Assembly (NCBI GenBank): GCA_963779495.1
Contig: CAVZYM010000005.1
Location: 2,265,554 to 2,329,553 of the forward strand
DNA from: an uncultured Pseudomonadota bacterium
Lineage (GTDB): Bacteria; Myxococcota_A; Polyangia; Fen-1088
Reading direction: 5' to 3'
DNA length: 64,000 nt
This document shows positions 6,292-35,233 of this stretch, in pieces; within the stretch, counting starts at the first letter, position 1, and every line of letters begins with the position of its first letter. Under the pieces are notes generated by a model. It had not been told where the DNA came from. It did not search any database and saw nothing but the letters and a program-made list of their open reading frames with translations. The translations under genes and the position numbers were made by a program.

Positions 6292-6293
6292 GG

Positions 6294-10002: not shown

Positions 10003-10015
10003 CGCCGCGCGGCGC

Positions 10016-10612: not shown

Positions 10613-10703
10613 GTGCGGGTCAGGTAGGAGCCAGGCGACGATTGTATCCCACGTTCCTCAAGGAATCTCCGATGTTCAGCGATATACTGATGTGGACCAC
10701 GCG

Positions 10704-15494: not shown

Positions 15495-15555
15495 AGCTCG
15501 GAGCCCACGCCACGCAGATAGGCCGGTCGGCCGCGGGCGGCGCATAATCAACGTC

Positions 15556-16896: not shown

Positions 16897-16974
16897 GCCA
16901 CCGCGATCCCGAAAAAGGGATCCGCCAGCGTCGCAACGGGCATATCGTGAGTGGCTTTTACGGAGGGCCCCCCG

Positions 16975-18204
16975 ATGCGATTCGCCTGGAAGCTTTGGTG
17001 TGTTGGCGCGCTGCTCGGTTCGAGCGTCCTCTTGGGCTGCGCAACGGGGGTGACCGACGATCCCACCGGGAACGGGGGGAGCACGGTCGGAAGCGCCGGC
17101 AGCGGCGGCACGTCGGGCGCGGCCGGCCAACCCGGGATCGCGGGTAGCTCCGGCGGCAGCTCCGGTGTCGCGGGCGCCGCGGGCGGCAGCTCAGGCGTCG
17201 CAGGGACCTCGGGGGGCGGCGGCGGCAGCACCGCGATCACCGGCATCGCCGGCAGCACGGGCGTCGCCGGGGCGGGGACCGGCGGAACGGCGGCCGGCGG
17301 GCAGGGCGGCACGGCGGGGCGTGGCGGCAGCGGCGTGGCGGGACGCGGCGGCAGCGGCGTGGCCGGCGGAAGTGGCGGCAGCGCGGCCGGCACCAGCGGC
17401 GGGGCCGGCGCCGGCGGCGGCGGAGACAAGGTCCCGGCCGATCCGAGCGCGGGCTGCGGCAAGGCGAATCCGGCCGTGGGCTCCTCGGGCAGCCCGCTGA
17501 CTGTCTCGAGCCACCAGTACTACGTGAAGCTGCCGACCGGCTACGACGCGAACAAACCGTACCCCGTCATCATGATGTTCAACCCGACCGGCAACCCGCT
17601 GAGCTGGGCCGAGCAGAGCGCCGGCTTCGAATCGAACGGCGCCAAGGCGGGCGCGATCCGCGTCTATCCGGGGCCGGCCAGCATGGCGAACGGCTGGGGC
17701 GCGGGTGACGTGTCGTTCTTCATGCCCCTCTACAGTCAGATCATCGGCGCCTACTGCGTCGACAAGGCGCGCGTCTTCGCCGCCGGCGAGAGCTCGGGCG
17801 GCGACTTCTCCAGCATCCTCGGCTGCGAGCACGCCGACGTGCTGCGCGCCGTCGCGCCCTGCGCGACGAAGGACGTGAGCGCCTATCCCCTCAACGCCAC
17901 GACGCGCAAGTGCACCGGCCAGGTCACCTCGGTCGTCATCCACGGCAAGAACGACAACGTCGTCGGCCCGGCGAACGGTCCCAAGACCCGCGACTTCTAC
18001 CTGGCGCTGAACCACTGCGGCACCACGAGCACGCCGGTGCAGGGCTACACCGACACGATGTCGAACTGCGTCCAGTACCAGGGGTGCGATGTGCCGTACC
18101 CGGTCTACTGGTGCTTGCACACCAATCCCGAGTACAGCGGCACGAACCACGGCTGGCCCCACTTCGCGGCCAACATGCTCTGGTCGCTGTGGTCGTCGTA
18201 CTGA
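16975..18204 (+). CDS. secreted lipoprotein esterase (PHB depolymerase / feruloyl esterase-like alpha/beta hydrolase) with a Gly-rich linker
   Basis: GGAGGG lies before ATG 16975. MRFAWKLWCVGALLGSSVLLGCA has a lipobox and is followed by about 130 aa of Gly-rich repeats. Then come YYVKLPTGYDANKPYPVIMMFNP and VFAAGESSGGDFSSILG (GxSxG nucleophile elbow). Confidence 0.65.
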   Translation: MRFAWKLWCVGALLGSSVLLGCATGVTDDPTGNGGSTVGSAGSGGTSGAAGQPGIAGSSGGSSGVAGAAGGSSGVAGTSGGGGGSTAITGIAGSTGVAGAGTGGTAAGGQGGTAGRGGSGVAGRGGSGVAGGSGGSAAGTSGGAGAGGGGDKVPADPSAGCGKANPAVGSSGSPLTVSSHQYYVKLPTGYDANKPYPVIMMFNPTGNPLSWAEQSAGFESNGAKAGAIRVYPGPASMANGWGAGDVSFFMPLYSQIIGAYCVDKARVFAAGESSGGDFSSILGCEHADVLRAVAPCATKDVSAYPLNATTRKCTGQVTSVVIHGKNDNVVGPANGPKTRDFYLALNHCGTTSTPVQGYTDTMSNCVQYQGCDVPYPVYWCLHTNPEYSGTNHGWPHFAANMLWSLWSSY

Positions 18205-19337: not shown

Positions 19338-19452
19338 CCGCGCCTCCGCGCCGAAAAAATCTCGGGGTTCCGCGAGGATGCTTTGCTTGACTATCCCGTT
19401 TCGCCGCCTCGCGTCGGAGTTTTTGCACAGACACGACCCGACAGGCGTCTTC

Positions 19453-22400
19453 ATGTCGGGAGGACTCCTGGGCATGGTCGCATTCAGGGTTGGTTCGGCT
19501 GTTGTGGTCGCTTCGCTGGTCGTCTTTTCCGGTTGTCGGGGCGGTGATCCGCCCGCGACTCCGACGAAAGGAGCGGCCATCCTGTCGGCTCTGCGCGGTA
19601 GACCGGGGTCGCCGTTCGCGGCGCGCGGGAAGGCGACATTCGACACGAGCGGCGGTGTCCTTCGGGCGCGGTTCGTGGAGAAGGACGCCGAGCCGACGCG
19701 CGCGCGGGTCACGCTGCCGATGCTGGCGAGCGCGGCGGTCCGGGTCGAGGACGCGGGCAGCGGCGCCGGCGTCGACGTCTCGCTGAGGGGGGCATCGTCT
19801 TCGTCGGCCCAGACGGTCGATGGACACGTCGTCTACCCGGAGGCCCTCGCCGGGGGCGCGACGCTGATCCAGCGGCCGCTCGCGAGCGGCGTCGAGGACT
19901 TCGTCAACTTCGAGACGCGCCCCGCGAAGCCGGAGCTGACGTACGACATCTCGCCCAGCAAGGGTGTCAGCGGGCTGCGCCTGGTGGACAACACGCTGGA
20001 GCTGCTCGACGCGGGCGGCGCGCCGCGCCTGCGCGTGGCGCCCCCCTACGTCGTCGGCGCGGACGGCGTCGAGACCGGCGCGATCCTGGCCGTCGAGGGG
20101 TGCGCCGTGGACAGCAATCCGTCGGCCCCCTGGGGGCGCGCGGTGACGGCGCCCGGCGCCACGCACTGCACGCTGCGCGTGCGCTGGCCGGAGTCGGTCG
20201 CCTATCCGGCGGTGGTCGACCCGCGCTGGACGACGACGGGGGCGATGATCACGGCGCGGCAGGAGCACACGGCCACGCTGCTTTCCACGGGCAAGGTGCT
20301 CGTGGTCGGCGGGCGGACCACGACCGGGACAGCGGCGCTCTCCAGCGCCGAGCTGTACGACCGGGCGACCGGGCTCTGGGCGGCCACGGGGAGCATTTCC
20401 GGCGCGCGGCGGCTGCACAGCGCGACGCAGCTCAACACGTCCTCGAATGCGACGACCAGCGGCAAGGTGCTGGTGGCGGGCGGCATCGACGGGACGAGCA
20501 CGCTGACGACCGCGCAGCTCTACTCGCCGACGGAAGGCACCTGGATCGCGGCGGGCAACCTGAACACGGGGCGCTATGCGCACACGGCGACACTGCTCGC
20601 CGGCAGCGCCGATGGGAAGGTGCTGCTCGCCGGCGGCGTGAGCGGCTCGACGACGCTGGCCACCGCGGCGATCTACAACCCGGCCTCGGGCGCCGGGGCG
20701 TTCGCGGCGACGACGGGGCCGCTCCCGCAGGGGGTGAAGGCGCACACCGCCACGCGACTCGCGACCGGCAACGCGCAGCTGAACAACAAAGTGCTGCTGG
20801 TCGGCGGCAACAACGGCTCGCTCTCGCTCTCCGCGGTCTATCTGTTCGACCCCACGTCGTCGGCCTTCAGCACGCTGGCGTCGCTCTCGACCCCGCGCGA
20901 GGGGCACACGGCGACGCTCCTGGCCGACGGCAAGCTGCTGGTGACAGGCGGCAAGAATGGGTCGACGACCCTGGCGACGACGCTCCAGTTCGACCCCGGC
21001 ACCGGGCCCGGGTCGTGGTCGACGAAGGGGAACCTGACGATCGCGCGCTGGGGGCACACGGCGACGCTGCTGCCGGCGACGGTCCTGGGGAACGGGCAGC
21101 TGCTGGTGGCGGGCGGAAACAGCGGCAGCGCGACGTTGTCGTCGTCGGAGCTCTACAGCGTTGCGCCCGGGACCTGGGCGCCGACGGCGGCGATGGCGGG
21201 GGCGGTGCAGGGGCACACGGCCACGTTGTTGCCCAGCAACATGGTCCTGCTGGCTGGCGGGCTCAGCGGGACGACCGTGCAGGGCGCGGCGCAGCTGTAC
21301 GACACGTCATCGGGCCTCGGGTGCAGCACCAACAGCCAGTGCGCCAGCGGCTTCTGCGTGAGCGGCGTCTGCTGCGACACCGCCTGCAACGGCGGCTGTG
21401 GCAGCTGCAACCTCGCGGGCTTTCCGGGGACGTGCAAGCCGCTCAGCAACACGACGGCCTGCCGCGCGTCGGCGGGCGCCTGCGACGTCGCCGAGACCTG
21501 CAACGGGACGTCGGTGGCCTGCCCGGCCGACGCATTCGCGGCGGCGACGGCGACCTGCCGCGGCGCGAACGGCGTGTGCGACGCGGCCGAGACCTGCACC
21601 GGCACGTCAGCGGCGTGCCCGGCTGATGCGCTCAAGCCGGCGAACACGGCCTGCACCGACGACGGCAACCTCTGCACGCAGGACAAGTGCAACGGCACGA
21701 GCGTGGCGTGCCAGCACCCGGCGGGGAACGCGGGAACGGTCTGCCGCGTCTCGGTCGGGTTGTGCGACGTGGCGGAGAGCTGCAACGGGACGTCGACCGC
21801 CTGCCCAACGGACGGGTTCGCGCCCGCGACGACGACGTGTCGTGGCGCCGCCGGCGAGTGCGACGTGGCCGAGATCTGCACCGGCACGTCCGCGGCATGT
21901 CCCGCCAACGCGCTGAAGCCGGCCAACACGCCCTGTACCGACGACGGCTTTGTCTGCACCCAGGACAAGTGCGACGGCACGATGACGGCGTGCCAGCACC
22001 CGGCGGGGAACCCAGGGACGGTTTGCCGTGCGGCGGACGGGTTGTGCGACGTGGCCGAGACCTGCACCGGTTCGGCGACCGCCTGCCCTGCGGATGGGTT
22101 CTTGCCCCCGACGACGACCTGCCGTCCGGTCGCCAGGGAGTGCGACGTGGCGGAGACGTGCACGGGGACGCAGCCGGTCTGCCCACCGGATGTGTCTGCC
22201 CCGAACGGCGCCCAGTGCAGTGACGGCAACGGCTGCACGTTGGCCGACACCTGCCAGTCGGGCAATTGTACGGCCGGCACTCCGGTGACCTGCACCGCGC
22301 AGGACCAGTGCCACGTCGCGGGTGTCTGCCAGGGATCGGGGACCTGCACCAATCCGGTCGTCGCCGACGGGACGCCGTGCACGGGTGGCCAGTGCGCCGC

Positions 22401-25400
22401 GGGGAGCTGCCAGTCGGGAACGCCGACGGGAAACCCGCCGACGCCAATCGACCCGACGGTCCCGCTCGACTTCCGGCAAGCCAACGCCTTCCTTTACGAG
22501 GGACCGAACGCCCAGCAGGTCGGCGTCGTGCCAGGAACAATCAAGCGAGCGCGCATCGGCGTTCTCCGCGGGCGTGTCACGGACGGACAAGGGCAACCGC
22601 TGTCTCAGGTCACCGTGCGGGTCGCCAGTCGTCCCGAATACGGAGCCACCCAGACCGCCGACGACGGCGTGTTCAGCTTGGCGGTCAACGGGGGCGAGCA
22701 GATACGCCTGGCCTACGACCGCGAGGGGTTCCTGCCCGTCCAAAGAACCGAGTTCGTGACCCCGCTCGACTACGGCTGGTTCCCCGACGTGACGATGACG
22801 GCGCTCGATTCCGCCCGGACAATCGTCGATCTCGGCGGTGGCTCTGGACCGCAGGTCGCGACCGCCACACCGACCTCGGATGCCAGTGGGCCGCGTCAGT
22901 CAATCGTTATCTTCCCGTCAGGCACCCAGGCGACCATCACCGAGAACGGCGGCGCGCCTCAACCGGCCACCACGCTGGCACTGCGTTCGACCGAGTACAC
23001 GGTGGGACCAGGGGGGCCTCAGGCCATGCCGGGGCCGCTGCCTCCGAGCTCCGGGTACACCTATGCCGTCGAGCTGAGCGTCGACGAGGCGCTGGGGCCG
23101 GGAACGCGGGTCGATTTCAACCGCCCCGTGATCAACTACGTCGACAACTTCCTGCATTTCCCGGTCGGCTCGCCCGTGCCTGTGGGCTACTACGACCGCG
23201 TCGCCGGAATGTGGGTCCCCGCCCCGAACGGGCGGGTGATCAGGGTCATCGAGAGCTTCGGCGGTTTCGCCGAGCTCGACACGGACGGGGACAGCGCACC
23301 AGATGACGCTTCCACGCTCGCGGCGTTGGGGATCGACGACGAAGAGCGCGCGACCCTGGCCACCCTCTACTTGCCCGGTCAGGACGTGTGGCGGGTGCCG
23401 GTGACGCACCTGACCCCTTGGGACTACAACTGGCCGTTGGCCCCGCCCGAGGACTTCGTGTACCCGGATGATCCCGATCCGCGGCCCAGGAACAAGCCGA
23501 CGGAGTCGAGCGACGGGCGTAAACCGCCCTGCGATGAGATTCAGGTCGGATCGTCGGTGGCTTGCAGCTCCCAAACGTTGAGTGAGGCCGTTCCCATCAC
23601 CGGAACGCCATTCTCACTCGTTTACACGACGTCGCGCTCTCCGGCATACGGTGCCGGGGCTGCTACGACAGACGTGAAGGTCAGTGGTCCGACGATTCCG
23701 GCCTCGGTCAAACGGATCGAAGTGTCCACGACCATCGCGGGGCGTCTGATTAAGCAAACATTCGCGCCGGCGCCCAACATCACGACTTCGGTGCCATGGG
23801 ATGGTCGCGACGCCTATGGCCGTGCTGTTACAGGCCGTCAGCCTGCCACGGTCAGCGTAACGTATGTTTACGGCGGCGTTTATAACCGTCCACTAGAAGA
23901 CGTGATCAGCTCGTTTGGGCGGTTTTCCGAGTTTCCCGAGATTCCGATCGATGGAGACCTCGGCCGAGGCGAGTTGTTTGCTCCGCACGTCGGCAAAACC
24001 ATGATCGAGCACCCGAATGCGTCGCTCGAGGAGGGCCTTGGAGGCTGGACGCTGGACGTCCACCACACCTACGACCCCCGAACGTTGACGTTGACCCGGG
24101 GCGACAACAAAAGACTCTCAGCCGATGCCCTCGGAGGCCGCGCCGCGGCGAACACGGCAAAGCTGTTAACCGAGGATGGCAGCATCGGCATCACCGACTT
24201 CCGTGTCACCAGCGACGGCAAAATATATACGGCCGGTTACGGCCGTATTCTGAGGATCGGGGATGATGGCGCCATCGAGGTTGTCGCGACTGATGTGGAG
24301 CCCACGTCCTTGGTGATCGCGGGTACGCGCGTATTCTTCTCCAATCAGCACGAATACCACGGCGGAGAAGCCCAATTAGTATACTGGCCAGGCCAGATCA
24401 AGGAACTGAAAGGGGATGGCAGCGTCGTGACACTGGCCGGGAGCACGAGGGAGGACTGCACTCCTCCGGACTATTACTCGAATCACGCCGCCCCGTTGTT
24501 CTTCGGCAATGAAGGTCCCGCGACGGACGCATGCTTGGAGAACATAAGGAGCGTAGGCGTCGCGCCCGACGGAACCATCTACGTGCTCGGCTACGTGTCC
24601 TTCCATTGGCAAATCCGGCGGATTACTTCCGACGGGATCATTCACGCGTTTTTGTCCGGAGGATTTCCGCAGGACGGTTCGACTGTGGACAAGCCGGGAT
24701 TCTTCGCCGGTGACCTGGCCATTTCTGGTGACTACTCAATGTACCTCAATGGCACCTATGCCACGGAAATTGACTTTGGCCGTTATCGGCCCTATCGAGG
24801 CGTGTTTCAGCGTCTGCTAACGAACGGCGCCGTGCAACCGGTGCTAACGATCGATTATCCGAACGGCAGCGCCAGCCTCTGCACCATCGACGAACTCACC
24901 AATGGCACCAGCGTGCCTCGTTGTCAGCCCAGTGCCGTGACGGTCGGGCCCGACGGACTCCTTTACGCTCAAACGAACGTGTCATTCAACGATCCGCGAT
25001 TCCCCGATTGGCCGCAGCACATGGCGAGAGTTGTGAGGATTCGCCCGGACGGCGTGCTGGCGGAAGCGTTCGCTGGCTTCAGCGACATGAACGTTTCAAA
25101 ATACACGATGTCGAGCGACGGCACGATCCTGATGATGGCGCGCCCATTCGCCGGACTCGGACGGGACGACAACCAGTATTGGGGAGCCCTTTCACTCTAC
25201 CGGCTCTACCCCAACCTCCCCTCCGTGTCGGACCAAGGATATCTCCTCCCGGCGAGCGACGGCAGCGAGATCTACTCATTCGACAACCGGGGACGCCACC
25301 TCCGCACGTACGACCGGACGGGGGCCGTCACGAAGCTTGAGTTTCAATATAACACCACCAACGGCCTTCTGACCGGCATCGCTGATCGGAATGGGCTGAC

Positions 25401-28293
25401 AACGACGATCGAGCGCGACGGCAGCGGTAAGCCGACCGCTATCGTTGCGCCCAACGGCCAACGAACGACACTCGCCGTGGACCCGAATGGATATCTCAGC
25501 TCCATCACGAGCCCCACCAACGCCATCGTGCAGTTCACGTACGTCAACGGCGCGATGACGCAGGAGATTGATGCCCGGAACGGAGTCCACCGGTTCACGT
25601 ACGATCCAGACGGAAGGCTCATCGTCGACCGCACGCCCACGACCGGTGAATGGACCTTCTCGCGTTCTCCGGATGGCTCGGTTGTCAGCTCGGCGAGCGC
25701 CGAAGGGGTCAACCATTCGTATGCTGTCAGCGAGCCGGTAGGCGCTTCCCAGCAAACGATCGTCGATGGCGCCGGTCTCACGTCGACGGTCCGTACCGAC
25801 GCTGCCGGGATGAGTCATGCCACGATGAGCAACGGCGTCGAGACGTTCACAAAGACCACTCCCGACCCTCGCTTCGGTGCGGCTGCGCCCTACGTCTCCC
25901 AAGAGTCCACCCGCACTCCGAGCGGACTGACGTCGATCACCAACATAAAGCGTCAGACGACTGTGTCTCCCGGCAATCCGCTCGTCATGACGGCACAGAC
26001 CCAAACGATCACCGTCAATGGGAAGACCACGACCGTGGCCTACGACGGGACGGCTCTGGAAACGCTGGTCACGTCGCCCGCGGGGAGGCAGACCGTCTAT
26101 CGCACGGACGACCATGGGCGGCTCGTCTATCTCCGGCGAGGAACCCTCGCTCCCGTCTCGTTGGCCTACGACGGACAGGGACGGCGGGTCGGCAGCCAGA
26201 TTGGTACGGGCAGCGACATCCGGACAACCACGGTGACCTACGATCCGCAGAGTCGTCCGGACTCCGTCACCGACGCGTCGTCGAGGATCAGCCACCTGAC
26301 CTATGACGCGGGCAATCGGTTGACTTCGATCGCGCGGGGCGGCGGTCTTCCGCTCAGCTTCTCGTACAACGGGGCCGACGATCTGGTGTCCCTCACCCCG
26401 CCTGGGGGCAGCGCTTTTACGTTCGGCTTTACGGCGGCAGGGGACACCGCCTCTTACTCGGTCCCTGGCGTCGGCGGCGAAAATCCGACGACCGGATTCG
26501 AGTTCGATCTCGATCGACGACTGACCCGGATCATCAACCCCGCGGGGACCCAGGCCGTCTTTGGCTATGAACCCGTAACCGGCAGGATCGCGAGCATCAC
26601 CTACGCCCGGGACGCCGGCGTGGCGGCGGCGGGAAATGTGACCGCGTCGATCGTGTACGCTCCGACAACAGGCAACGTACAGACGATCGCCGTCACCGAT
26701 GGTCCCCAGCTGACCTTCCAGTACGACGGACCGCTTCTGCTCTCGACGACCTGGTCCGGTTCCATCGCGGGAAGCATCAGCCACAGCTATGACAGCGACT
26801 TTCGCGTCATCAGCCAGAGCGTGAACGGAGGCAATACGGTCTCTTTCAGCTACGATGCCGATGGCTTGCCGACGGCTCTCGGCGACCTGACGCTGACGCG
26901 CGACATTCCGAATGGGTTCGTGACCGATTCGACTCTGGGTGGCGTCACCGATCACACGGCGTACACGATGTTCGGCGAGGTCCGAGACTATGAGGTCCGG
27001 CACGCGGGGCAGCCGCTGTACCACGCCGACTACCAGGCGCGAGACGCGCTCGGTCGGATCGAGACGAAGGTGGAAACGATCCAGGGCGTCACGACCACCT
27101 GGAGCTACGGGTACGACGACGCTGGCCGACTCTCTCAGGTCATGAAGGATGGCACCGTGACCGCGTCATACGGGTACGACGCCAAGGGGAACCGGACGAG
27201 CGGCCCGGCCCTGCCGACGGCGCCCGTCTACGACGTTCAGGACAGGCTGCTCAGCTATGGACACTGGGCCTTCACCTACACCGCCGGCGGAGATCTATCG
27301 ACCAAGACGGATACGAACAGCGGCGCAGTGACGAGGTACCACTACGACAGCGCCGGCGCGCTCCGCGAGGTCCGGCTGCCGGATGGTCGTTTGATCGAAT
27401 ATGTCATCGATGCCGCCGGCCGCCGTGCCGGGAAGAAGGTTGACGGGGTGCTGGTGAAGGGGTGGCTCTACGGCGAAGATGATCTGACGGTCGTCGCAGA
27501 GTTGGACGGGAGCGGCGGCGTCGTGAGCCGGTTCGTCGACAACCGCTATTTCGTCCGCGGTGGCGCGACCTACCGTGTCGTCACGGACGAAATCGGCACC
27601 GTCCGTCTGGTGGTGGATGTCGCGACGGGGGCGGTGGCGCAACGCCTCGACTACGATGAGTTCGGTAATGTCCTGCAGGACACGTCGCCCGGGTTCCAGC
27701 CGCTGGGGTTTGGCGGGGGCCACTACGATCCCGACACCGGACTCGTGCGCTTCAGGGCGCGGGACTACGATCCGACCGTGGGACGATGGACGGCGAGGGA
27801 TCCCATCATGTTCGAAAGTGGGGAGGCGCTTCTCTACGCGTACGTGGGAAACGACCCCGTGAACCATGTCGATCCGACCGGTCTCGTGAAGTTGGAGCTC
27901 AACAGGGCTACCGGCGAGTTGCTCGTTGACCCGGAACGGCCGGGCGCGGACCCCTATGTTCTCGGGGCCGATTCGGGCAAGGAGAAGTGCCGGAACAATC
28001 CGCTATGCGAGAGAAAAAAGGACCAGGGCCCCACGCCCAGAGGGGATTACCACTTCAAGCCGAGTGGAATAAAGCCGTCGCCCAGCGACGGTCGAGACTG
28101 GGGCCCTTGGCGCGTCAGGCTGACGCCGGATTCCGGGACCAATACCTTCGGTCGTGACAGGTTCTACCTCCACGGGGGGAAGACGCCGGGCACGAGCGGG
28201 TGCATCCAAATCAACCGAGAGATGGACCTGGAGCGGCTCAGATTCGAGCTTGAGTCGGATCCGGACGACTACGTACCATTGTTAGTGCGGTGA
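19453..28293 (+). CDS. Rhs/YD-repeat polymorphic toxin with teneurin-like architecture and a lipoprotein-type signal
   Basis: One uninterrupted frame. MSGGLLGMVAFRVGSAVVVASLVVFSGC starts at ATG 19453. It contains Kelch blades, Cys-rich repeats, TTR/FN-plug (WRVPVTHLTPWDYNWP), an NHL-like propeller, about 2 kb of YD repeats, an RHS core ending DPVNHVDPTGL, and then a 135-aa C-terminal domain. Confidence 0.9.
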   Translation: MSGGLLGMVAFRVGSAVVVASLVVFSGCRGGDPPATPTKGAAILSALRGRPGSPFAARGKATFDTSGGVLRARFVEKDAEPTRARVTLPMLASAAVRVEDAGSGAGVDVSLRGASSSSAQTVDGHVVYPEALAGGATLIQRPLASGVEDFVNFETRPAKPELTYDISPSKGVSGLRLVDNTLELLDAGGAPRLRVAPPYVVGADGVETGAILAVEGCAVDSNPSAPWGRAVTAPGATHCTLRVRWPESVAYPAVVDPRWTTTGAMITARQEHTATLLSTGKVLVVGGRTTTGTAALSSAELYDRATGLWAATGSISGARRLHSATQLNTSSNATTSGKVLVAGGIDGTSTLTTAQLYSPTEGTWIAAGNLNTGRYAHTATLLAGSADGKVLLAGGVSGSTTLATAAIYNPASGAGAFAATTGPLPQGVKAHTATRLATGNAQLNNKVLLVGGNNGSLSLSAVYLFDPTSSAFSTLASLSTPREGHTATLLADGKLLVTGGKNGSTTLATTLQFDPGTGPGSWSTKGNLTIARWGHTATLLPATVLGNGQLLVAGGNSGSATLSSSELYSVAPGTWAPTAAMAGAVQGHTATLLPSNMVLLAGGLSGTTVQGAAQLYDTSSGLGCSTNSQCASGFCVSGVCCDTACNGGCGSCNLAGFPGTCKPLSNTTACRASAGACDVAETCNGTSVACPADAFAAATATCRGANGVCDAAETCTGTSAACPADALKPANTACTDDGNLCTQDKCNGTSVACQHPAGNAGTVCRVSVGLCDVAESCNGTSTACPTDGFAPATTTCRGAAGECDVAEICTGTSAACPANALKPANTPCTDDGFVCTQDKCDGTMTACQHPAGNPGTVCRAADGLCDVAETCTGSATACPADGFLPPTTTCRPVARECDVAETCTGTQPVCPPDVSAPNGAQCSDGNGCTLADTCQSGNCTAGTPVTCTAQDQCHVAGVCQGSGTCTNPVVADGTPCTGGQCAAGSCQSGTPTGNPPTPIDPTVPLDFRQANAFLYEGPNAQQVGVVPGTIKRARIGVLRGRVTDGQGQPLSQVTVRVASRPEYGATQTADDGVFSLAVNGGEQIRLAYDREGFLPVQRTEFVTPLDYGWFPDVTMTALDSARTIVDLGGGSGPQVATATPTSDASGPRQSIVIFPSGTQATITENGGAPQPATTLALRSTEYTVGPGGPQAMPGPLPPSSGYTYAVELSVDEALGPGTRVDFNRPVINYVDNFLHFPVGSPVPVGYYDRVAGMWVPAPNGRVIRVIESFGGFAELDTDGDSAPDDASTLAALGIDDEERATLATLYLPGQDVWRVPVTHLTPWDYNWPLAPPEDFVYPDDPDPRPRNKPTESSDGRKPPCDEIQVGSSVACSSQTLSEAVPITGTPFSLVYTTSRSPAYGAGAATTDVKVSGPTIPASVKRIEVSTTIAGRLIKQTFAPAPNITTSVPWDGRDAYGRAVTGRQPATVSVTYVYGGVYNRPLEDVISSFGRFSEFPEIPIDGDLGRGELFAPHVGKTMIEHPNASLEEGLGGWTLDVHHTYDPRTLTLTRGDNKRLSADALGGRAAANTAKLLTEDGSIGITDFRVTSDGKIYTAGYGRILRIGDDGAIEVVATDVEPTSLVIAGTRVFFSNQHEYHGGEAQLVYWPGQIKELKGDGSVVTLAGSTREDCTPPDYYSNHAAPLFFGNEGPATDACLENIRSVGVAPDGTIYVLGYVSFHWQIRRITSDGIIHAFLSGGFPQDGSTVDKPGFFAGDLAISGDYSMYLNGTYATEIDFGRYRPYRGVFQRLLTNGAVQPVLTIDYPNGSASLCTIDELTNGTSVPRCQPSAVTVGPDGLLYAQTNVSFNDPRFPDWPQHMARVVRIRPDGVLAEAFAGFSDMNVSKYTMSSDGTILMMARPFAGLGRDDNQYWGALSLYRLYPNLPSVSDQGYLLPASDGSEIYSFDNRGRHLRTYDRTGAVTKLEFQYNTTNGLLTGIADRNGLTTTIERDGSGKPTAIVAPNGQRTTLAVDPNGYLSSITSPTNAIVQFTYVNGAMTQEIDARNGVHRFTYDPDGRLIVDRTPTTGEWTFSRSPDGSVVSSASAEGVNHSYAVSEPVGASQQTIVDGAGLTSTVRTDAAGMSHATMSNGVETFTKTTPDPRFGAAAPYVSQESTRTPSGLTSITNIKRQTTVSPGNPLVMTAQTQTITVNGKTTTVAYDGTALETLVTSPAGRQTVYRTDDHGRLVYLRRGTLAPVSLAYDGQGRRVGSQIGTGSDIRTTTVTYDPQSRPDSVTDASSRISHLTYDAGNRLTSIARGGGLPLSFSYNGADDLVSLTPPGGSAFTFGFTAAGDTASYSVPGVGGENPTTGFEFDLDRRLTRIINPAGTQAVFGYEPVTGRIASITYARDAGVAAAGNVTASIVYAPTTGNVQTIAVTDGPQLTFQYDGPLLLSTTWSGSIAGSISHSYDSDFRVISQSVNGGNTVSFSYDADGLPTALGDLTLTRDIPNGFVTDSTLGGVTDHTAYTMFGEVRDYEVRHAGQPLYHADYQARDALGRIETKVETIQGVTTTWSYGYDDAGRLSQVMKDGTVTASYGYDAKGNRTSGPALPTAPVYDVQDRLLSYGHWAFTYTAGGDLSTKTDTNSGAVTRYHYDSAGALREVRLPDGRLIEYVIDAAGRRAGKKVDGVLVKGWLYGEDDLTVVAELDGSGGVVSRFVDNRYFVRGGATYRVVTDEIGTVRLVVDVATGAVAQRLDYDEFGNVLQDTSPGFQPLGFGGGHYDPDTGLVRFRARDYDPTVGRWTARDPIMFESGEALLYAYVGNDPVNHVDPTGLVKLELNRATGELLVDPERPGADPYVLGADSGKEKCRNNPLCERKKDQGPTPRGDYHFKPSGIKPSPSDGRDWGPWRVRLTPDSGTNTFGRDRFYLHGGKTPGTSGCIQINREMDLERLRFELESDPDDYVPLLVR
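20224..21310 (+). other. Kelch-type beta-propeller region of the Rhs protein (seven blades)
   Basis: Seven units of the form R-x-x-HTATLL-x(2-10)-GKVLVxGG-x-G-x(6-10)-ELY/IY-x-P-x-x-G-x-W. Confidence 0.75.
21316..22420 (+). repeat. Cys-rich repeat region of the Rhs protein, including about 2.4 copies of a 282-nt (94-aa) super-repeat
   Basis: CRxxxGxCDVAExCxGTSxACPxD modules. The super-repeat copies start at 21460, 21742 and 22024, an exact 282-nt period. Confidence 0.8.
22552..23440 (+). other. carboxypeptidase-regulatory (TTR)-like domain plus FN-plug-like region, as in teneurins
   Basis: RIGVLRGRVTDGQGQPLSQVTVRV...DDGVFSLAVNGG, then MPGPLPPSSGYTYAVELSVDEA, NFLHFPVGSPVPVGYYDRVAGMWVPAPNGRVI and LYLPGQDVWRVPVTHLTPWDYNWP. 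Confidence 0.7.
27335..27885 (+). other. RHS repeat-associated core domain ending at the predicted autoproteolysis motif
   Basis: RLDYDEFGNVLQDTSPGFQPLGFGGGHYDPDTGLVRFRARDYDPTVGRWTARDPIMFESGEALLYAYVGNDPVNHVDPTGL. Confidence 0.85.
27886..28293 (+). other. C-terminal toxin domain, Tlde1/DUF2778-like (L,D-transpeptidase/YkuD fold)
   Basis: 135 aa follow DPTGL. GPTPRGDYHF...WRVRLTP...FGRDRFYLHGGKTPGTSGCIQINREMDLERL matches the H-x(n)-S-x-GC catalytic pattern of YkuD-fold enzymes and the GPxPxGxY lead-in of DUF2778. Confidence 0.55.
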
Positions 28294-29183
28294 TGATCGC
28301 GCTCGCCCTCCTCGTGATGGGGACGGTTTCGCCCGGGCGGTCCGGCCCGGGCCACGTGGCTCCGATTGTGGGCGCACTGGAAGACGTGGAGGTAGCGGGC
28401 CGCGAGGAGGGCCACCTCGCCCGCCGGGTGAGGACGCTGTTCCGGTACGACGGCCACAAATGGATGGCCTACCCGCACCGTCCTCGGGACCAGCGAGAGC
28501 TCCGGGGCCTCGCAGGCAAGTTCCCGCCTTCGGTCTCCTGGACCATCTGCCATGATGGGAAGGCGCTGGGTGTCGTCGTGGGTCGCGCGAGCCGGCGATG
28601 GGGCTTCTACGGTCAAGTCGGCCTTCAGGAGCCGATTCCCGATTCAGTCGCGCCCAGCGTGGGCGAGCCGAGCCGGCGGTTTGCAGGGGACTCCGAGCTT
28701 CCCGTGCACCATCCGCTCGTGGCGACCACGGGACGGTGTCGGCTGGACGGATGGGCCTTGGTTCCTAGCCTGCCGAAGGAAGTTCAGGATCGCGTGATCG
28801 CCGCGCTCCCGGATCCGGGAGCGTCGCAGAGACGCGTCACCAGCTACGCTTGGCCCGCGTCGTACCGCGGCCCCGAGGGGAGTTGGATCGTCGAGGTCCA
28901 TCGTTCCGTGCCGCGTCTCACCGAACGCCGCGTGGTCTTCGTCGGCCCCGAGGGGACCACTGTGGCCGCCGGTGAGCCGGGCAGCCATGTCGGACTTTCG
29001 GATGACACGGGACCGCTGGCGCCCGGAAGAATCAGTCCTCAGTTGATCGTCGATATCGGCGACTGGAACGGTGATGGCAAGAGCGAGGTCTTGACGAAGT
29101 TCGAGCGGGATAACCTCGAGGGATACATCCTGCTCTCCAGCTCGGGCCAAGCGCTGGCGACCTTCGACTGGAACTATCACTAG
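28290..29183 (+). CDS. candidate cognate immunity protein (secreted, FG-GAP-like C-terminal motif)
   Basis: GTG 28290 or ATG 28293 overlaps the Rhs stop (GTGATGA). The N-terminus MMIALALLVMGTVSPG is hydrophobic. The C-terminus DIGDWNGDGKSEVL is an FG-GAP/VCBS-like Ca-binding motif. GC is as low as in the 3' part of the Rhs gene. Confidence 0.55.
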   Translation: MMIALALLVMGTVSPGRSGPGHVAPIVGALEDVEVAGREEGHLARRVRTLFRYDGHKWMAYPHRPRDQRELRGLAGKFPPSVSWTICHDGKALGVVVGRASRRWGFYGQVGLQEPIPDSVAPSVGEPSRRFAGDSELPVHHPLVATTGRCRLDGWALVPSLPKEVQDRVIAALPDPGASQRRVTSYAWPASYRGPEGSWIVEVHRSVPRLTERRVVFVGPEGTTVAAGEPGSHVGLSDDTGPLAPGRISPQLIVDIGDWNGDGKSEVLTKFERDNLEGYILLSSSGQALATFDWNYH

Positions 29184-29338
29184 GTCAGGCCGCTCGTCAC
29201 CGATTCTGCGCGCGGCCGCCTCCTCGACGTTACCGCTCCGGAACGCCTGCCCGACATTTTCGGGGTAATCGCCGTCAGGGCTCGCCTGGTACGCCTCGTG
29301 CTCAGCGTAGGTCGAACGCTGACTACGAAGGAGATCCC

Positions 29339-29650
29339 ATGACGACCCGCATGAAGACTTGGACCTATACGATGTTCGCCGCGCTGCTCTTCACCTTCGG
29401 CGCCGCGGCCGGCGCGGGCTGCGACGCGGTCGAAACCGCGTTCGACTGCGATCAGGTCTGCGCGCGTTACCAGAACTGCTTCGATGGCGACTACGACGTC
29501 GGTGCCTGTCGCAGCCGGTGCCGCGATCGCGCGGCCAACGACGACAGCGTCCGGCAGGCCGCCGACACCTGTGAGGACTGCATCGACGACATGTCCTGCG
29601 CCTCGGCGACGTTCAACTGCGGCGCCAGCTGCAGCAACATCGTTCCGTAA
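29339..29650 (+). CDS. small Cys-rich lipoprotein
   Basis: GAAGGAG lies 6 nt before the ATG. MKTWTYTMFAALLFTFGAAAGAGC has a lipobox. There are 11 Cys in 103 aa. Confidence 0.6.
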   Translation: MTTRMKTWTYTMFAALLFTFGAAAGAGCDAVETAFDCDQVCARYQNCFDGDYDVGACRSRCRDRAANDDSVRQAADTCEDCIDDMSCASATFNCGASCSNIVP

Positions 29651-29665: not shown

Positions 29666-32659
29666 TCAGCGCGGCGCAGGCGGTTTGCCGGGCGCCGCCG
29701 CCGGCGGCTTTCCCGCTGCACCCGGCACAAGCGGCTTCGCTCCCGGCGCGGCCGCCCCCGGCCGCATCGGCCCGGCGCCCTTGCCGGCGCCCGGGCCGAT
29801 GCCCTTGGCCGCGTCGTCCGCCTGCACCTCTTCCATCGTCGTGCGCAGCGTGCCGCCGGTGTCGTCGGGCTTCACGCCGGGGGGGCGCGACCAGGGGACC
29901 GGTTGCAGCGGCTGGCCGGCGGTGACCTCGCTGATGTAGCGGGCGAACATCGGCACCGTCAGCATGAAGGCGGCGTCCTTGTGGCCCAGCGGGCGCTCGC
30001 GCAGGTCGTCGCCGATCCAGGTCGATGTCATCCAGCGCGAGGTGTAGCCGATGAACCAGGTGTCCATCGTCGCGCTGGACGTGCCGGTCTTGCCCGGCCG
30101 CCGGGATGCCGGCGCTGCGGATCGCGGGGGCGTGGCCGCGCGTCACCACGTGGCGCAGCAGCGTCGACGTCAGCCAGGCGGTGCGCGGCGGGATGACCGG
30201 CTTCGGCTTGCTGCCGGTCAACGACCACCAGGCGATCGAGCCGCTCGCCCTGGCGTCCCGAAGGGATCGCCTGGCACCGTGTTGTCCTCCAGATCACGAC
30301 GCCGGTGCGGTCGCGCACGCGGCGGATGTAGACCGGGTCGATCAGCACGCCGTTGCGGGCGAAGGCCGAGAACGAGCGGGTCAGCTCGTCGATGCGCGTG
30401 CACGACGCGCCCAGCGCCAGCGCCTGGTCGGGGATGATCTGGGTGGTGATCCCCAGCCGCCGCGCCCAGGCCTCGACCTCGCTTGCCGCCCACCAGCTTG
30501 AACAGCTGCACCGACGGGACGTTCTTCGACCAGATCAGCGCGTACTCCAGCGTCACCTGGTACTCGACGGTGTTGTTCAGGTTGGTGGGCGTCCAGACCT
30601 CGCCCGTGATCGGATCGACCTCGGCGCGCGGGACGTCGTTCAGCAGCGAGTCGAAGCCGTAGCCCTTGTCCAGCGCCAGCGAGTAGTACATCGGCTTGTA
30701 GACCGACCCGGGCTGGCGGCAGGCCTGCGAGCACGCGGTTGAACTCCGAGCGGTCGTAGTCGTCGCCGCCGACCATCGCCACCACGTAGCCGGTGCCGTG
30801 GTCGTAGCTGAAGATCGCCCCCTGCACGCGCGGCGTCTGCTCCAGCGTCAGCGTGATCGCCTGGCGCTTGGCGTGGTGGGCGCTCGCGGTGCGCCCGGCT
30901 TCTTCGGGGCCGCCTCGTCGAAGGCCGGCAGCCACTGCACCTCGTTCTTGGCGTCGTAGGTCCAGTCGGAGAAGCGGCGCCGCTTCGTCTGGTGGCGCGT
31001 TCTTCACCCAGATCGACGTCGCCGACGCGGAGCACGCCGACCGCCGTGTCGAGCAGGCGGCCGTTGGTGGAGTCCTTGGCGCTGTAGGGGACCGCCCAGA
31101 GCATCGTGCTCGGGCGGAATCACGTAGGCGTGCGTGCCGACGCGCACCTTCGCGCCGCCGGTCGGCGAGCACGGCCTCGACCAGGCCCAGGTAGAGGCGC
31201 CCCTCGACCGGCGGGTCGTTCGCCGTAGCGGGCGGCGGCGCGGCGGCGGAACTCGTCGGCGGCGGCGCCCCGTCAGGCGCGCCACCGGACCGCGCCAGCC
31301 CTGGCGCTTGTCCAGCTTGCGCAGCGAGAAGTCGACGTTCTCCTGGCCGGCGATGTCGATCCAGGGGACGACCGTGGTCTCGATCGTCATCCCCGCCTCG
31401 ACAGCGTCTTGTCGCCGTAGCGGCGGGCGATGTCGCGGCGCACGTGCTCGGTGAAGTAGGGGGTGGTGCTCGCGGAAGAAGTCGGGGCGCTGGCGGACGA
31501 CCACGGGGCGGGCGCGCCAGCGGTTGGCCTCGTCGTCGGTCAGCATGTCCGTCGCCACCATCGCCGCCAGCACCTGATCGCGGCGGGCCCGCGCCGCCTC
31601 CAGGTTCGTCAGCGGCGAGAAGCGCGAGGGCGCGCGGGCGAGGCCCGCGAGCAGCGCCATCTCGCCCAGGTCCAGCTCGCCGACCGGCTTGTCGAAGTAG
31701 CGGCGGGCGGCCGCCGCCACGCCGTAGGCGCCGTGGCCGAGGAAGATCTGGTTCAGGTAGAGCGTCAGGATGTCGTGCTTCGGAAAGCGCGACTCCAGAC
31801 GCCGCGCCAGGATCGCCTCGCGGATCTTGCGCTGGATCGTCCGCTCCGACGTCAGGAACGACTTCGCCACCTGCTGGGTGATCGTCGAGCCGCCCTGCGC
31901 CACCTCGCCGGCGCGCAGGTTGGCCCCCAGCGCGCGCGCGATGCCGCGGTAGTCGAGGCCGCCGTGCTCGTAGAAGCGGCGATCCTCGGCCGAGATGAAC
32001 GCCTGCACCAGCTGGGGCGGGAACTGGTCGAACGACAGGATCTCGCGCCGCTCGTTGGCCAGCTCGGCCAGCGGCGTGCCGTCCCAGCCGCGCACGACCG
32101 TCGTGGTGGCGGCGACCTTGTGATAGGTCGCGATGTCGGGCAGCGCCGGCAGCGTGGTCGCGAAGTGCAGGTAGGTGAAGAAGCCGGCGATCCCCAGGAT
32201 GCCCAGCACGCAGAGCAGACCGAAGGCGTAGAACTTCAGCAGCCAGTGGATGAAGCCGCCGTCGGACGGGTTCATCACCTCGACGACGGGCGGGCCGCCG
32301 CCGGGCGGGCCCCCGCCGGACGGGCCGCCGCCCGACGGGCTGGGAGGCGGTGTCGGCAGTTCCGGAGGCGGTGTCAGCGTCTCCGGAGGTGGTGTCGCCA
32401 TTGCGGGAGGCGGTGTCGGCAGCTCCGGCGGCGGCGTCGGCAGCTCTGGCGGCGGTGTCGGCGGGTCCGCGGGCGTCATCGTCGCCGGGCTCGCCGGCGT
32501 CGCCGGGCGCGGCGGTGTCGGCAGGCCCGGCAGGGTCGCCAGGCGCGGCCGTGGCGCCGGGCGCGGCGGTGTCGCCGGTGGAGACGGCGTCGCCGGGGAA
32601 GTCGGAGGTGGGGGGAGCCGCACGTCGCCGGGCGGTGGGGGCGGCGGCTTCTGCGCCAT
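29666..32659 (-). pseudogene. mrcA: penicillin-binding protein 1A (transglycosylase/transpeptidase), frame broken at least seven times (possibly an artefact)
   Basis: After a Pro-rich N-terminus and a TM segment come FISAEDRRFYEHGGLD, GGSTITQQVAK and RKIREAILARRLE (the GT51 domain). The transpeptidase part is scattered over three frames: GAIFSYDHGTGYVVAMVGG, PGSVYKPMYYSLALDKG, LEYALIWSKNVPSV, TGTSSATMDTWFIGYTS. One compensated pair is near 31395/31465, where the alternative frame reads TTPYFTEHVRRDIARRYGDKTL. Confidence 0.8.
32344..32469. repeat. 6 x 21-nt tandem repeat encoding the (E/T)LPTPPP heptads of the PBP1A N-terminus
   Basis: Units ggaggcggtgtcggcagttcc / ggaggcggtgtcagcgtctcc / ... 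read directly from the sequence. Confidence 0.8.
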
Positions 32660-32731
32660 TTCTCAGTGAAAAGTAACACGGCTCGTGGTCCCATCACGCC
32701 GTGGATCTGTTCGATCGTCGTCCCGCTGAGG

Positions 32732-34937
32732 TTGCGCGACGACCCCGACCAGACGCTCGCCGGCACGGTCGAGCGCATCGTCTACTCGGGCGGCGACGGC
32801 GAGTTCACGGTGGCGCGGCTGGAGCTGGAGCAGGGCGGGGTGGTCACCGTCGTCGGCGGGCTGGCCGGCGTTCCGGCGGGCGCCGTGCTGCGGGTGACCG
32901 GGAAGTACGAGACCACCGCGCGCTTCGGCGAGCAGTTTCGCATCGCCCGTTACACCGAGGTCGCGCCGCAGACGCTCGACGGCATGCGCCGCTATCTCGG
33001 CTCGGGGATGATCAAGGGGATCGGCCCCGAGTTCGCGGCCCGCATCGTCGACCGTTTCGGGATCGAGACCCTGGAGATCCTGGATCGCGATCCGGGGCGC
33101 ATCAGCGAGGTGGCCGGGATCGGCCCCACGCGCGCGCGCGCGATCCGCAGCGCCTGGAGCGCGCAGCGCGAGGTGCGCAAGGTGATGGTCTTCCTGCAGG
33201 GCTACGGCGTCTCGCCGGCCTTCGCGGCCCGCATCTACAAGCGCTACGGCGCGGCGGCGATCGCGCGCGTGCGCGAGAACCCCTACCGGCTGGCCTTCGA
33301 CATCTGGGGGATCGGGTTCCTGTCGGCCGACCGGCTGGCGGCCGCGCTGGGGATCGCGCGCGACGCGCCCGAGCGCGCCGAGGCGGGCGTCCGCCACGTG
33401 CTCGACGAGGAGGCGGGGAACGGCCACGTCTTCGTGCCGCGCGCCCGGCTCGTGCGCATCGCGGCGGCGATGCTCGACCAGCCCGAGGCGGCGGTGACGG
33501 CGGCGATCGAGCGGCTGGCGCGCGCGGGCGACGTCGCGATCGACGCGTCGGTCGTCGAGGACGCGGGCGACGCCGCCACCTACGAGGTCAGCCTCTACCG
33601 CGCCGAGACGGCGCTGGCCGCGGGGCTGAAGATGCTGCTGGCCACCGCCGCGCCCGCCCGGCCGCCGCGATCGACGAGGCGCGCGCCCTCGCCTGGTACG
33701 AGCGCAGCGCCGGCATCACGCTGGCGCGGCAGCAGGCCGAGGCGGTCAGGCTGGCGCTCACGGCCAAGGTCGCGGTGATCACCGGCGGTCCCGGCGTCGG
33801 CAAGACCACGATCGTGCGCGGCATCGTGTCCATCCTTGCCCAGGCTCAGGGCAAGCAGAACGTCACCGTCGCGCTGGCGGCCCCGACCGGGCGCGCGGCC
33901 AAGCGGCTCGCCGACGCGACCGGCGCGCCCGCCTCGACCTTGCACCGCCTCCTCGAGTGGCGTCCCGCCGACGGCACGTTCGGCCGCGGCCCCGAGCGCC
34001 GGCTGGAGGCCGACGTCCTGATCGTCGACGAGGCGTCGATGCTCGACGTGCGGCTGGCTGCCGGGCTGGTGGCGGCGCTGCTGCCGTCGGCGCGGCTGGT
34101 GCTGGTCGGCGACGTCGATCAGCTTCCGTCGGTCGGCCCCGGCACCGTGCTGCGGCGACGTGATCGACAGCGGCGCCGTGCCGACGGTCCGGCTGACCGA
34201 GATCTTCCGCCAGGCGGCCGAGAGCCTGATCGTCGTCAACGCCCACCGGATCCACGACGGCGAGGAGCCCGAGCTGCGCTCGCCCGCGGCCGGCGGTCGG
34301 CGAGGACAAGCGCGACTTCTTCTTCCTCGAGGAGCCCGACCCCGCCAAGGCGGCGCTGCTGATCCGCGATCTGGTCGCGACCCGGCTGCCGCGGCGCTAC
34401 GGTTTCTCCGCGCACGACGTGCAGGTCCTGACGCCGATGCACCGGGGCGATCTCGGGGCCGGCAACCTGAACCAGCTCCTGCAGGCGGCGCTGACCGAGG
34501 GGGCCCCTGCGATCCAGCGCGGCAGCCGCGTGCTCCGCGTCGGCGACAAGGTGATGCAGGTGCGCAACGACTACGACAAGGAGGTCTGGAACGGCGACAG
34601 CGGGATCATCGACCGGATCGACGGCGACGGCGAGACCGTCCACGTCCGCTTCGACGACCGGACGATCGAATACGACCTCGACGAGACCGACGCGCTGGTG
34701 CTCGCCTACGCGGCGACCGTCCACAAGTCGCAGGGCTCCGAGTACCCCGCCGTCGTCGTGCCGGTCCACACCCAGCACTTCGTGATGCTGCAGCGCAACC
34801 TGCTCTACACCGCCGTCACCCGCGGCAAGCGCCTGGTCGTCCTGGTCGGCACCCGCAAGGCCCTGGCCCTCGCGGTCCGCAACGCCGACGTGGCCGCCCG
34901 CTGCTCGGGGCTGGCGCGGCGCCTTCCGGCACGGTGA
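32732..34937 (+). pseudogene. recD2: RecD2-type ATP-dependent helicase, three frameshifts (possibly an artefact)
   Basis: GTVERIVYSGGDGEFTVARLE (OB-like N-terminus), MIKGIGPEFAARIV (HhH), VITGGPGVGKTT, LIVDEASMLD, VGDVDQLPSVGPG, IFRQAAESLIVVNAHRI and AYAATVHKSQGSEYPAVV. The frame changes near 33660, 34152 and 34295. The start is uncertain (TTG 32732 or GTG 32666). Confidence 0.75.
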
Positions 34938-34966
34938 ACGCGGGAATGCGAAGACGGGAGGCCGAG

Positions 34967-35233
34967 ATGAAAACGAACTACGACTTCACGAACGCGATCC
35001 GAAATCCCTACGCGAGGTGGTTGACGAAACCGGTGACGATCCGGTTGGACGAGGAGACCATCAGCTACTTTCAGGGGCTCTCCCGCGAGATGTCTCTGCC
35101 GTATCAGACGCTCATGAACATGTACTTGCGAGACTGCGCCGAGACTCGAAAACGACCTCACTGGGCTGCGGCCAAGACACCAGACCGCGCACGTAAGCCG
35201 CTCCGGAAGGCCGCTTCTGGCGGACGTCGCTAG
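34967..35233 (+). CDS. BrnA-like (CopG/RHH family) antitoxin, no adjacent toxin gene
   Basis: GGGAGG lies before the ATG. NAIRNPYARWLTKPVTIRLDEETISYFQGLSREMSLPYQTLMNMYLRDCA matches the BrnA pattern (NPYAK..K..ITIRLD..vi.yFK...e..g.pYQTLIN.yLR.ca). GC is lower than in the flanks. Confidence 0.6.
   Translation: MKTNYDFTNAIRNPYARWLTKPVTIRLDEETISYFQGLSREMSLPYQTLMNMYLRDCAETRKRPHWAAAKTPDRARKPLRKAASGGRR

Follow-up and report, generated by a model that had tools for sequence, protein, structure and literature searches.

The locus

The subject of this analysis is a 64-kb stretch of bacterial DNA (64,000 nucleotides of contig CAVZYM010000005.1, positions 2,265,554 to 2,329,553 of the forward strand), hereafter referred to as the window, with all coordinates counted from its first letter. 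Within it lies a very long open reading frame (ORF) coding for an Rhs/YD protein, which ends in a toxin-type domain and whose stop codon overlaps the start of a further gene on the same strand. The three elements at the center of the analysis are the following.

19378–28293 (stop codon included), + strand: bacterial teneurin-like Rhs/YD polymorphic toxin of 2971 amino acids (aa), hereafter the carrier (ORF, Pfam and NCBIfam profiles)
27886–28290, + strand: Tlde1/DUF2778-type L,D-transpeptidase-fold toxin, aa 2837–2971 of the carrier (profile, family alignment and model)
28293–29183, + strand: candidate immunity gene, 296 aa, with a signal-like hydrophobic N-terminus (position, overlap and homologue)

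The carrier ORF extends over 8.9 kb as a single reading frame without interruption, and its last 135 residues constitute the toxin domain, with the stop codon closing the interval 27886–28293. A first-pass annotation of this DNA had described the 135 residues after DPTGL as a Tlde1/DUF2778 effector acting on peptidoglycan; the stretch it quoted is the exact translation of 27886–28293 (+), directly behind the PxxxxDPxGL motif of the Rhs core, and the family assignment is borne out by the comparisons described below.

Identity of the C-terminal domain

The assignment of the last 135 residues to the Tlde1/DUF2778-type L,D-transpeptidase-fold domains is supported by three independent tests, i.e., by Pfam, by a family profile compared with the sequences in the PDB, and by a modelled structure. 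In the first of these, the isolated domain matched Pfam PF10908 (Tlde1_dom) with E = 7.9e-14 and a score of 52.5 bits, the gathering cut-off being 30.1 (45.4 bits when scored in the full-length protein), whereas the YkuD model PF03734, the second family considered in the first-pass annotation, reached 21.0 bits and thus remained slightly below its gathering cut-off of 23.4. The domain contains the segments GPTPRGDY, WGPWRVRL and LHGGKTPGTSGCI, with its His and Cys 10 residues apart; the GPTPRGDY lead-in and the His...TSGC motif, from which the first-pass annotation had argued, are therefore both present, and far beyond what chance would produce.

When 1.84 billion representative proteins were searched exhaustively with HMMER, 1052 relatives of the domain were obtained at E ≤ 1e-3, 106 of them at E ≤ 1e-10. 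The pattern H-x(6-12)-[ST]-x-G-C is matched by 147 of the 150 best relatives, the His-to-Cys spacing being 10 in nearly all of them. In an alignment of 33 family members, the residues S30, G31, G48, G53, W72, G73, H96, G102, G105 and C106 (domain numbering) are invariant and R90 is kept in at least 90% of the sequences; PF10908 is matched by 32 of the 33 members, and YkuD at E ≤ 1e-3 by only 8.

When the profile built from these 33 sequences was compared with all PDB sequences, the only protein found was Tlde1a of Salmonella Typhimurium (7UMA/7UO3/7UO8; E = 1.1e-4). In this alignment WGPWRVRL...GRDRFYLHGGKTPGTSGC of the window domain lies opposite WGYNRIRL...KRGGFYIHDSTKGYSHGC of Tlde1a, and W72, R78, R90, Y94, H96, T103, G105 and C106 pair with W93, R99, R115, Y119, H121, S128, G130 and C131 of Tlde1a, all of which are catalytic or functionally important in that enzyme (PMC9638812). 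The catalytic motif H96-x6-T103-S104-G105-C106 is placed opposite H121...S128-H129-G130-C131, and His2932 and Cys2942 of the carrier (H96 and C106 of the domain) are accordingly the predicted catalytic pair, as judged from the aligned sequences. In addition, the domain has a pair of cysteines, C2871 and C2877, common to much of the family, which could form a disulfide and would then fit an extracytoplasmic enzyme.

The AlphaFold2 model calculated from the 33-sequence alignment has a mean predicted local distance difference test score (pLDDT) of 96.5 and a predicted TM-score (pTM) of 0.89. A Foldseek comparison of this model with the PDB, a check that the first-pass annotation had itself put forward, gave the three Tlde1a structures 7UO3, 7UMA and 7UO8 as ranks 1–3 (E = 8.6e-6 to 2.9e-5, probability 1.00, query-normalized TM-score (TMq) 0.70–0.74), at an identity of approximately 17–19% in the Foldseek alignment. 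The next matches were DpaA (8IKR; E = 1.5e-3, TMq 0.58) and LdtMt5 (4ZFQ), the remainder being noise.

Searches with the single domain or with few sequences were less productive. The single-sequence AlphaFold2 run of the 135 residues was unusable (pLDDT 34.6) and has been superseded by the 33-sequence run, phmmer with the single domain against PDB sequences returned only chance matches (a TetR regulator and an expansin), and a word-indexed homologue search with the single toxin domain returned none; a 4-sequence toxin alignment used to scan genomes and metagenomes gave pattern matches but zero confirmed candidates.

Architecture of the carrier

The remaining features of the carrier, in order from its N-terminus, are listed here.

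19474–19536, + strand: probable true start M33 and lipoprotein-type signal peptide, MVAFRVGSAVVVASLVVFSG followed by C (by eye)
20224–21297, + strand: Kelch-repeat β-propeller, aa ~283–640 (Kelch_1/3/4/6 and KLHDC2-type models, each above cut-off)
21322–22410, + strand: Cys-rich repeats, aa 649–1011, with ~55 Cys (Pfam Disintegrin model, 6 stretches)
22546–22797, + strand: teneurin-type transthyretin-like (TTR) domain, aa 1057–1140 (PF25020, 63.2 bits, cut-off 27)
22798–23673, + strand: 292 aa between TTR and FN-plug (no Pfam match)
23674–23874, + strand: teneurin FN-plug, aa 1433–1499, closing the shell at its N-terminal end (PF24329, 32.0 bits, cut-off 27.8)
23875–25257, + strand: probable NHL β-propeller, aa 1500–1960, a weak match (PF25021 TEN_NHL, E = 9.6e-6)
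25258–27804, + strand: YD-repeat shell, aa 1961–2809 (PF25023 TEN_YD-shell, RHS_repeat in 7 stretches, TIGR01643)
27652–27885, + strand: Rhs-associated core with aspartyl-protease plug, aa 2759–2836 (TIGR03696, 72.9 bits)

The database representative of the carrier (P0007) begins 32 codons further in than the ORF, at 19474 (M33), and a lipobox-like FSGC, ending in Cys53, is contained in MVAFRVGSAVVVASLVVFSG followed by C. Approximately 230 residues without an assigned domain separate the signal from the Kelch propeller, which is presumed to be a variable N-terminal adhesion module. The YD shell is well above the threshold (PF25023, 87.4 bits against a cut-off of 50), and the TEN_NHL match, with 25.2 bits slightly below its cut-off of 27.1, is located between the FN-plug and the shell, as expected. 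The Rhs core terminates in PVNHVDPTGL, an exact instance of the Rhs boundary motif PxxxxDPxGL as defined in PMC8636562, and the toxin starts right after it (...GNDPVNHVDPTGL / ...LYAYVGNDPVNHVDPTGL). With the motif present, self-cleavage after DPTGL is predicted by analogy and would free the toxin.

This layout is that of the bacterial teneurin-like proteins (TLPs) described by Raoelijaona et al. in 2026 (PMC13018210), including BiTLP and MfTLP, which have variable C-terminal toxins and an immunity gene directly downstream. TLPs are defined by the FN-plug, NHL and YD-shell profiles and begin with variable adhesion modules, after which come TTR, the “TIP” insertion, FN-plug, NHL and YD shell and, at the end, the toxin; SEC/SPII signals are predicted in their Gram-negative members, and the delivery step is explicitly stated to be unknown (PMC13018210). 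Both the domain order and the SPII-like signal of the window protein agree with this description, which is why the carrier is regarded here as a bacterial TLP, Sec-exported and probably lipid-anchored, a view that forms part of the overall explanation favored below. By analogy of position only, the 292-aa stretch between TTR and FN-plug may correspond to the site of the “TIP” insertion.

Polymorphism of the C-terminus and distribution of the toxin

The carrier is a polymorphic toxin with a swappable C-terminus. Genomes scanned with a 132-residue query from the C-terminal end of shell plus core yielded 80 loci in many phyla with cores 55–68% identical, the window's own genome not being among the hits; after DPxGL the C-termini of these 80 loci are mutually unrelated, and only one of them (L053) is Tlde1-like.

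The view from the toxin is complementary, in that this toxin subfamily is carried mostly on Rhs proteins. A core of the window type lies upstream of the toxin domain in 55 of the 150 best relatives, and the domain occupies the extreme C-terminus in 142 of them. The long representatives tested were Rhs/YD proteins in all cases (11/11), with varied, non-T6SS (type VI secretion system) N-termini and no PAAR or VgrG domain in any of the 11; they include two teneurin-like proteins (P0047 and P0012), a SpvB/TcdB-like one, and one each with a VWA domain and with FG-GAP repeats. Some other relatives are free-standing proteins of ~145 aa resembling classical Tlde1 cargo. According to precomputed annotation, PF25023 (TEN_YD-shell) and PF10908 occur together in several public proteins, and relatives are publicly labeled as “tlde1 domain-containing” or “RHS repeat-associated”. 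Within the window, neither orphan toxin/immunity cassettes nor additional copies were found.

At the one Tlde1-like locus of the genome scan (L053:4798–6406), the gene behind the toxin codes for a multi-pass membrane protein of 140 aa (4801–5223) instead of a homologue of the window's downstream protein, and next comes an orphan C-terminal fragment of an Rhs protein whose tip is different (5285–6406). The membrane-protein partner indicates that the partners of this toxin subfamily vary between loci.

The downstream gene

The ATG of the gene at 28293–29183 shares its A with the TGA stop codon of the toxin (TGATG), which is the arrangement expected for translational coupling. For its 296-aa product, 5.8 billion clusters contain no more than five relatives, and comparison with Pfam, NCBIfam and PDB sequences gave nothing significant. 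The closest relative, 52% identical, is encoded on a metagenome contig (L005) directly after a gene combining TEN_YD-shell and Tlde1_dom, the toxin of which is 48% identical to that of the window in the family alignment. A hydrophobic, signal-like start is present in all 4 relatives whose N-terminus is aligned, and such an N-terminus fits a periplasmic immunity protein directed against a periplasm-acting toxin. The most likely role of the gene, judged from its sequence and position, is therefore that of a candidate periplasmic immunity protein.

Two more distant homologues (P0004 and P0005) are found at loci L001–L004 (gene at ~9562–10900) and in JGI sample 3300047160, in unrelated neighborhoods; one of these distant homologues lies beside genes for cysteine dioxygenase and aminotransferase, another beside a gene of the beta-lactamase/DD-peptidase family. 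These may represent orphaned immunity genes or, alternatively, members of a family with another periplasmic role.

At a distance of 150 bp past the immunity candidate lies a small ORF (29339–29650, + strand, 103 aa) with a GC content at third codon positions (GC3) of 0.88; its product has a lipoprotein-like signal (…FTFGAAAGAGC), ~12 Cys and no Pfam match.

Genomic surroundings

The other identifiable genes of the window are housekeeping genes, which serve histidine, proline and sulfur metabolism or code for a PBP1-type transglycosylase and for helicases. The transglycosylase gene (31004–32659, − strand; PF00912, 215 bits) encodes a peptidoglycan enzyme approximately 2 kb from the toxin locus, a proximity which is probably a coincidence. 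Just upstream of the toxin gene are three consecutive high-GC3 ORFs (14460–18204, + strand) of 344, 446 and 417 aa without a Pfam match.

The GC content of the window, 71%, would together with the domain repertoire be compatible with Myxococcota. A block at ~23100–29400 is lower in GC, with 0.58–0.67 compared with 0.72–0.74 on either side and with GC3 decreasing from 0.92 to ~0.78. This block spans the FN-plug, NHL, YD shell, toxin and downstream gene and does not include the Kelch and Cys-rich part of the same ORF. It suggests that a cage–toxin–immunity module was horizontally acquired and joined to a native-like N-terminus, with the caveat that the amino-acid composition of the YD repeats may contribute to the low GC content.

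Further downstream, a RecD2-type helicase gene (32720–34937, + strand) is broken over four frames, with its OB/HHH part in ORF 31463–33778, the Walker-A motif GGPGVGKT in ORF 32701–34362, the middle part in ORF 34160–35233 and SH3_13/UvrD_C_2 in ORF 34419–34937. At least 3 frameshifts in ~2.2 kb would be needed for this, which points either to a pseudogene or to a series of indel errors in the assembly.

Proposed mechanism and alternative explanations

The explanation that in our judgment very probably applies to this locus is that of a TLP-class, Sec-exported polymorphic toxin with a Tlde1-type cargo and a coupled, exported immunity protein. The corresponding model of action is drawn by homology from Tlde1a (10.1101/2020.02.18.954545; PMC9638812), from Rhs proteins (PMC8636562) and from the teneurin-like proteins (PMC13018210). 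In this model, the carrier would be exported by the Sec machinery and probably held by a lipid anchor, with the Kelch propeller and the Cys-rich repeats serving as the variable outer module, while the TTR, FN-plug, NHL-like propeller and YD shell would form the conserved cage that folds around the C-terminal domain in the envelope. The aspartyl protease of the core would then cleave after DPTGL, leaving the 135 residues enclosed until delivery. Upon contact with a competitor, the freed enzyme would reach the periplasm or the exposed wall, without involvement of a T6SS, where Cys2942 and His2932 would attack the stem peptides of peptidoglycan, by removal of D-Ala4 (L,D-carboxypeptidase activity) and/or by its replacement with other D-amino acids, resulting in a weaker wall. 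The co-translated exported partner (28293–29183) would meanwhile shield the periplasm of the producer itself.

Several observations weigh against this explanation, or at least against parts of it. The signal peptide and lipobox were judged by eye; the search for T6SS genes covered the 64-kb window; and for several ORFs in the vicinity of the toxin gene there is no match in Pfam. As to the partner, the two distant homologues that were examined, at 28–31% identity, have no toxin gene nearby, for which reason a dedicated immunity role rests on two loci. As to the toxin, the position of Tlde1a H129 is occupied here by Ser (S2940) and in most of the subfamily by Ala; since H129 is not conserved, the reaction profile may differ from that of Tlde1a. 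The length of 135 aa compared with the 173 aa of Tlde1a implies that the capping subdomain is probably absent, and an insert of 14–20 residues present in most subfamily members is missing both here and in the closest relative.

A more far-reaching reading, for which we see a rather small chance, would go beyond the favored explanation. In it, the teneurin-like carrier would be lipid-anchored and independent of a T6SS, its cargo would have to get no further than the periplasm of the target, and delivery would follow a route new for such proteins, e.g., outer-membrane exchange between kin cells or a direct breach of the outer membrane; the exported immunity proteins would form a family of their own, not described before. 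The toxin subfamily, without an equivalent of H129 and probably without the capping subdomain, might then have a distinct activity profile. Because a periplasmic target lowers the requirement for translocation, the locus could also be a tractable model of TLP delivery.

Among the explanations that compete with the favored one, that of a different envelope linkage is the first to be considered. In it, the L,D-transpeptidase fold is retained and the enzyme either cuts the bond between Braun lipoprotein and peptidoglycan, as in DpaA/LdtF, or performs D-amino-acid exchange only. It draws on DpaA being the next-best structural match, on the probable absence of the capping subdomain, which shapes the specificity of Tlde1a, and on the lack of conservation of H129, as the H129A variant of Tlde1a keeps D-amino-acid exchange and loses part of its carboxypeptidase and cross-linking activity (PMC9638812). 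However, Tlde1a is clearly the better match in structure as well as in sequence, where it was the only PDB match, and the counterparts of R115, which belongs to the D-amino-acid pocket, and of W93 and R99 are all conserved, so that we consider this possibility to be unlikely.

In another alternative, the carrier would be a T6SS effector of the kind represented by the known Rhs-DUF2778 fusions, and the T6SS firing it would be encoded in another part of the genome. Such fusions are indeed found near PAAR genes (10.1101/2020.02.18.954545), and the contig from which the 64 kb examined were taken measures at least 2.99 Mb. The features of the carrier itself argue in the opposite direction: it begins with a Sec/lipoprotein-type signal in place of a PAAR or VgrG-binding region, Pfam detected neither PAAR nor VgrG in it even at E ≤ 1, and the TTR/FN-plug/NHL/YD superfold belongs to teneurin-like proteins, for which the delivery machinery is not known. 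No recognizable T6SS gene, including those for Hcp, VgrG and Eag, is present in the 64-kb window either, and T6SS-mediated firing is therefore regarded as very unlikely.

Finally, the idea of a non-toxic module co-opted for adhesion or signaling, or of a fused housekeeping YkuD enzyme, may be suggested by the inactivated toxin domain (Tox-GHH) of animal teneurins (PMC3482391) and by the social-behavior roles proposed for teneurin-like proteins (PMC13018210), but it is scarcely credible for a domain that directly follows the Rhs cleavage motif, has retained a coupled downstream gene, scores above the cut-off of Tlde1_dom and below that of YkuD, and keeps intact both its catalytic His/Cys pair and every aligned substrate-contact residue, which are invariant or nearly so in the subfamily.

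The result is useful for annotation, in that the cargo of a 2971-aa protein obtains a confident functional label, and for the choice of experimental models, with a periplasm-acting cargo as a convenient read-out for the delivery step of TLPs.

Comparison with known systems

The first-pass annotation had considered a Tlde1-type domain inside an Rhs shell to be an undescribed arrangement and hence a new delivery chassis, a claim that has to be given up in view of earlier reports. The founding Tlde1 study (10.1101/2020.02.18.954545) already described DUF2778 at the C-terminus of Rhs proteins, e.g., WP_052983304.1 of Shigella sonnei, finding DUF2778-on-Rhs in 387 of the 3510 genomes of one subfamily, with other secretion systems in some of the neighborhoods. 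Even earlier, Zhang et al. in 2012 (PMC3482391) had described Tox-LD-peptidase on RHS repeats, with T2SS, T6SS and TcdB/TcaC as the secretion types and with delta-proteobacteria, Actinobacteria and Chloroflexi among the taxa, and noted the RHS architecture and the linked immunity genes as distinguishing features of such toxins. Together with the TLPs with swappable toxins and the public co-annotation of PF25023 and PF10908, these reports leave no room for novelty of the combination as such; descriptions of this type of toxin on Rhs carriers go back to 2012, and its recognition in the window is annotation rather than discovery.

With Tlde1a itself (Tae5-STM, STM14_0336; 7UMA, 7UO3, 7UO8) the window domain shares PF10908, the fold, the His-to-Cys spacing of 10 and the aligned residues, as well as a possible disulfide pair, Tlde1a having two disulfides (PMC9638812). 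The two differ in that Tlde1a is a free-standing 173-aa T6SS cargo with a capping subdomain, whereas the window domain of 135 aa is placed behind an Rhs core. The immunity arrangements are also different, as Tldi1, the immunity protein of Tlde1a, is a DUF2195 protein encoded upstream, in contrast to the unrelated 296-aa partner encoded downstream in the window.

The Rhs-DUF2778 fusions (Tae7/Tlde1c subfamily, WP_052983304.1) resemble the window protein more closely in that both have a Tlde1-type C-terminal cargo on an Rhs protein; the former, however, lie beside PAAR genes, and T6SS delivery has been inferred for them, while the latter has a Sec/lipoprotein signal and the teneurin-like superfold. 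Tox-LD-peptidase likewise shares its H, S and C residues, the RHS-repeat carrier and the linked immunity gene with the window system, and Sec-type (“T2SS”) secretion is among those listed for it; its immunity families are Imm16 (DUF2750) and Imm57, whereas the downstream protein of the window matches no Pfam family. Regarding YkuD-type enzymes, such as LdtMt5 (4ZFQ) and DpaA/LdtF (8IKR), the similarity consists of the superfamily fold and the Cys/His chemistry, and the differences are the score below the YkuD cut-off, a His–Cys spacing shorter than in the HXX14-17-(S/T)HGCh consensus given for L,D-transpeptidases, and the setting of a toxin rather than that of a housekeeping enzyme.

The closest correspondence for the carrier as a whole is with the TLPs, whose architecture it shares, with the TEN_NHL match slightly below cut-off. 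The C-terminal classes named for TLPs are OMP-like, ADP-ribosyltransferase, HINT, nuclease, protease and peptidase (PMC13018210), and in the text of that survey and the supplements that were searched, Tlde1, transpeptidase, peptidoglycan and Kelch do not occur; nor was a statement on a Tlde1-type cargo on a teneurin-like carrier found in the literature. With the window protein, the toxin types of TLPs come to include an enzyme directed against peptidoglycan, a class not found named in the 2026 survey. There are earlier publications on L,D-peptidase toxins on Rhs proteins, on Sec-exported Rhs/YD toxins, and on TLPs whose toxins are swappable and have immunity genes downstream. A Tlde1-type toxin on a TLP is an expected pairing in a known combinatorial system, and one that the window shares with the teneurin-like representatives P0047 and P0012 and with the metagenome contig L005.

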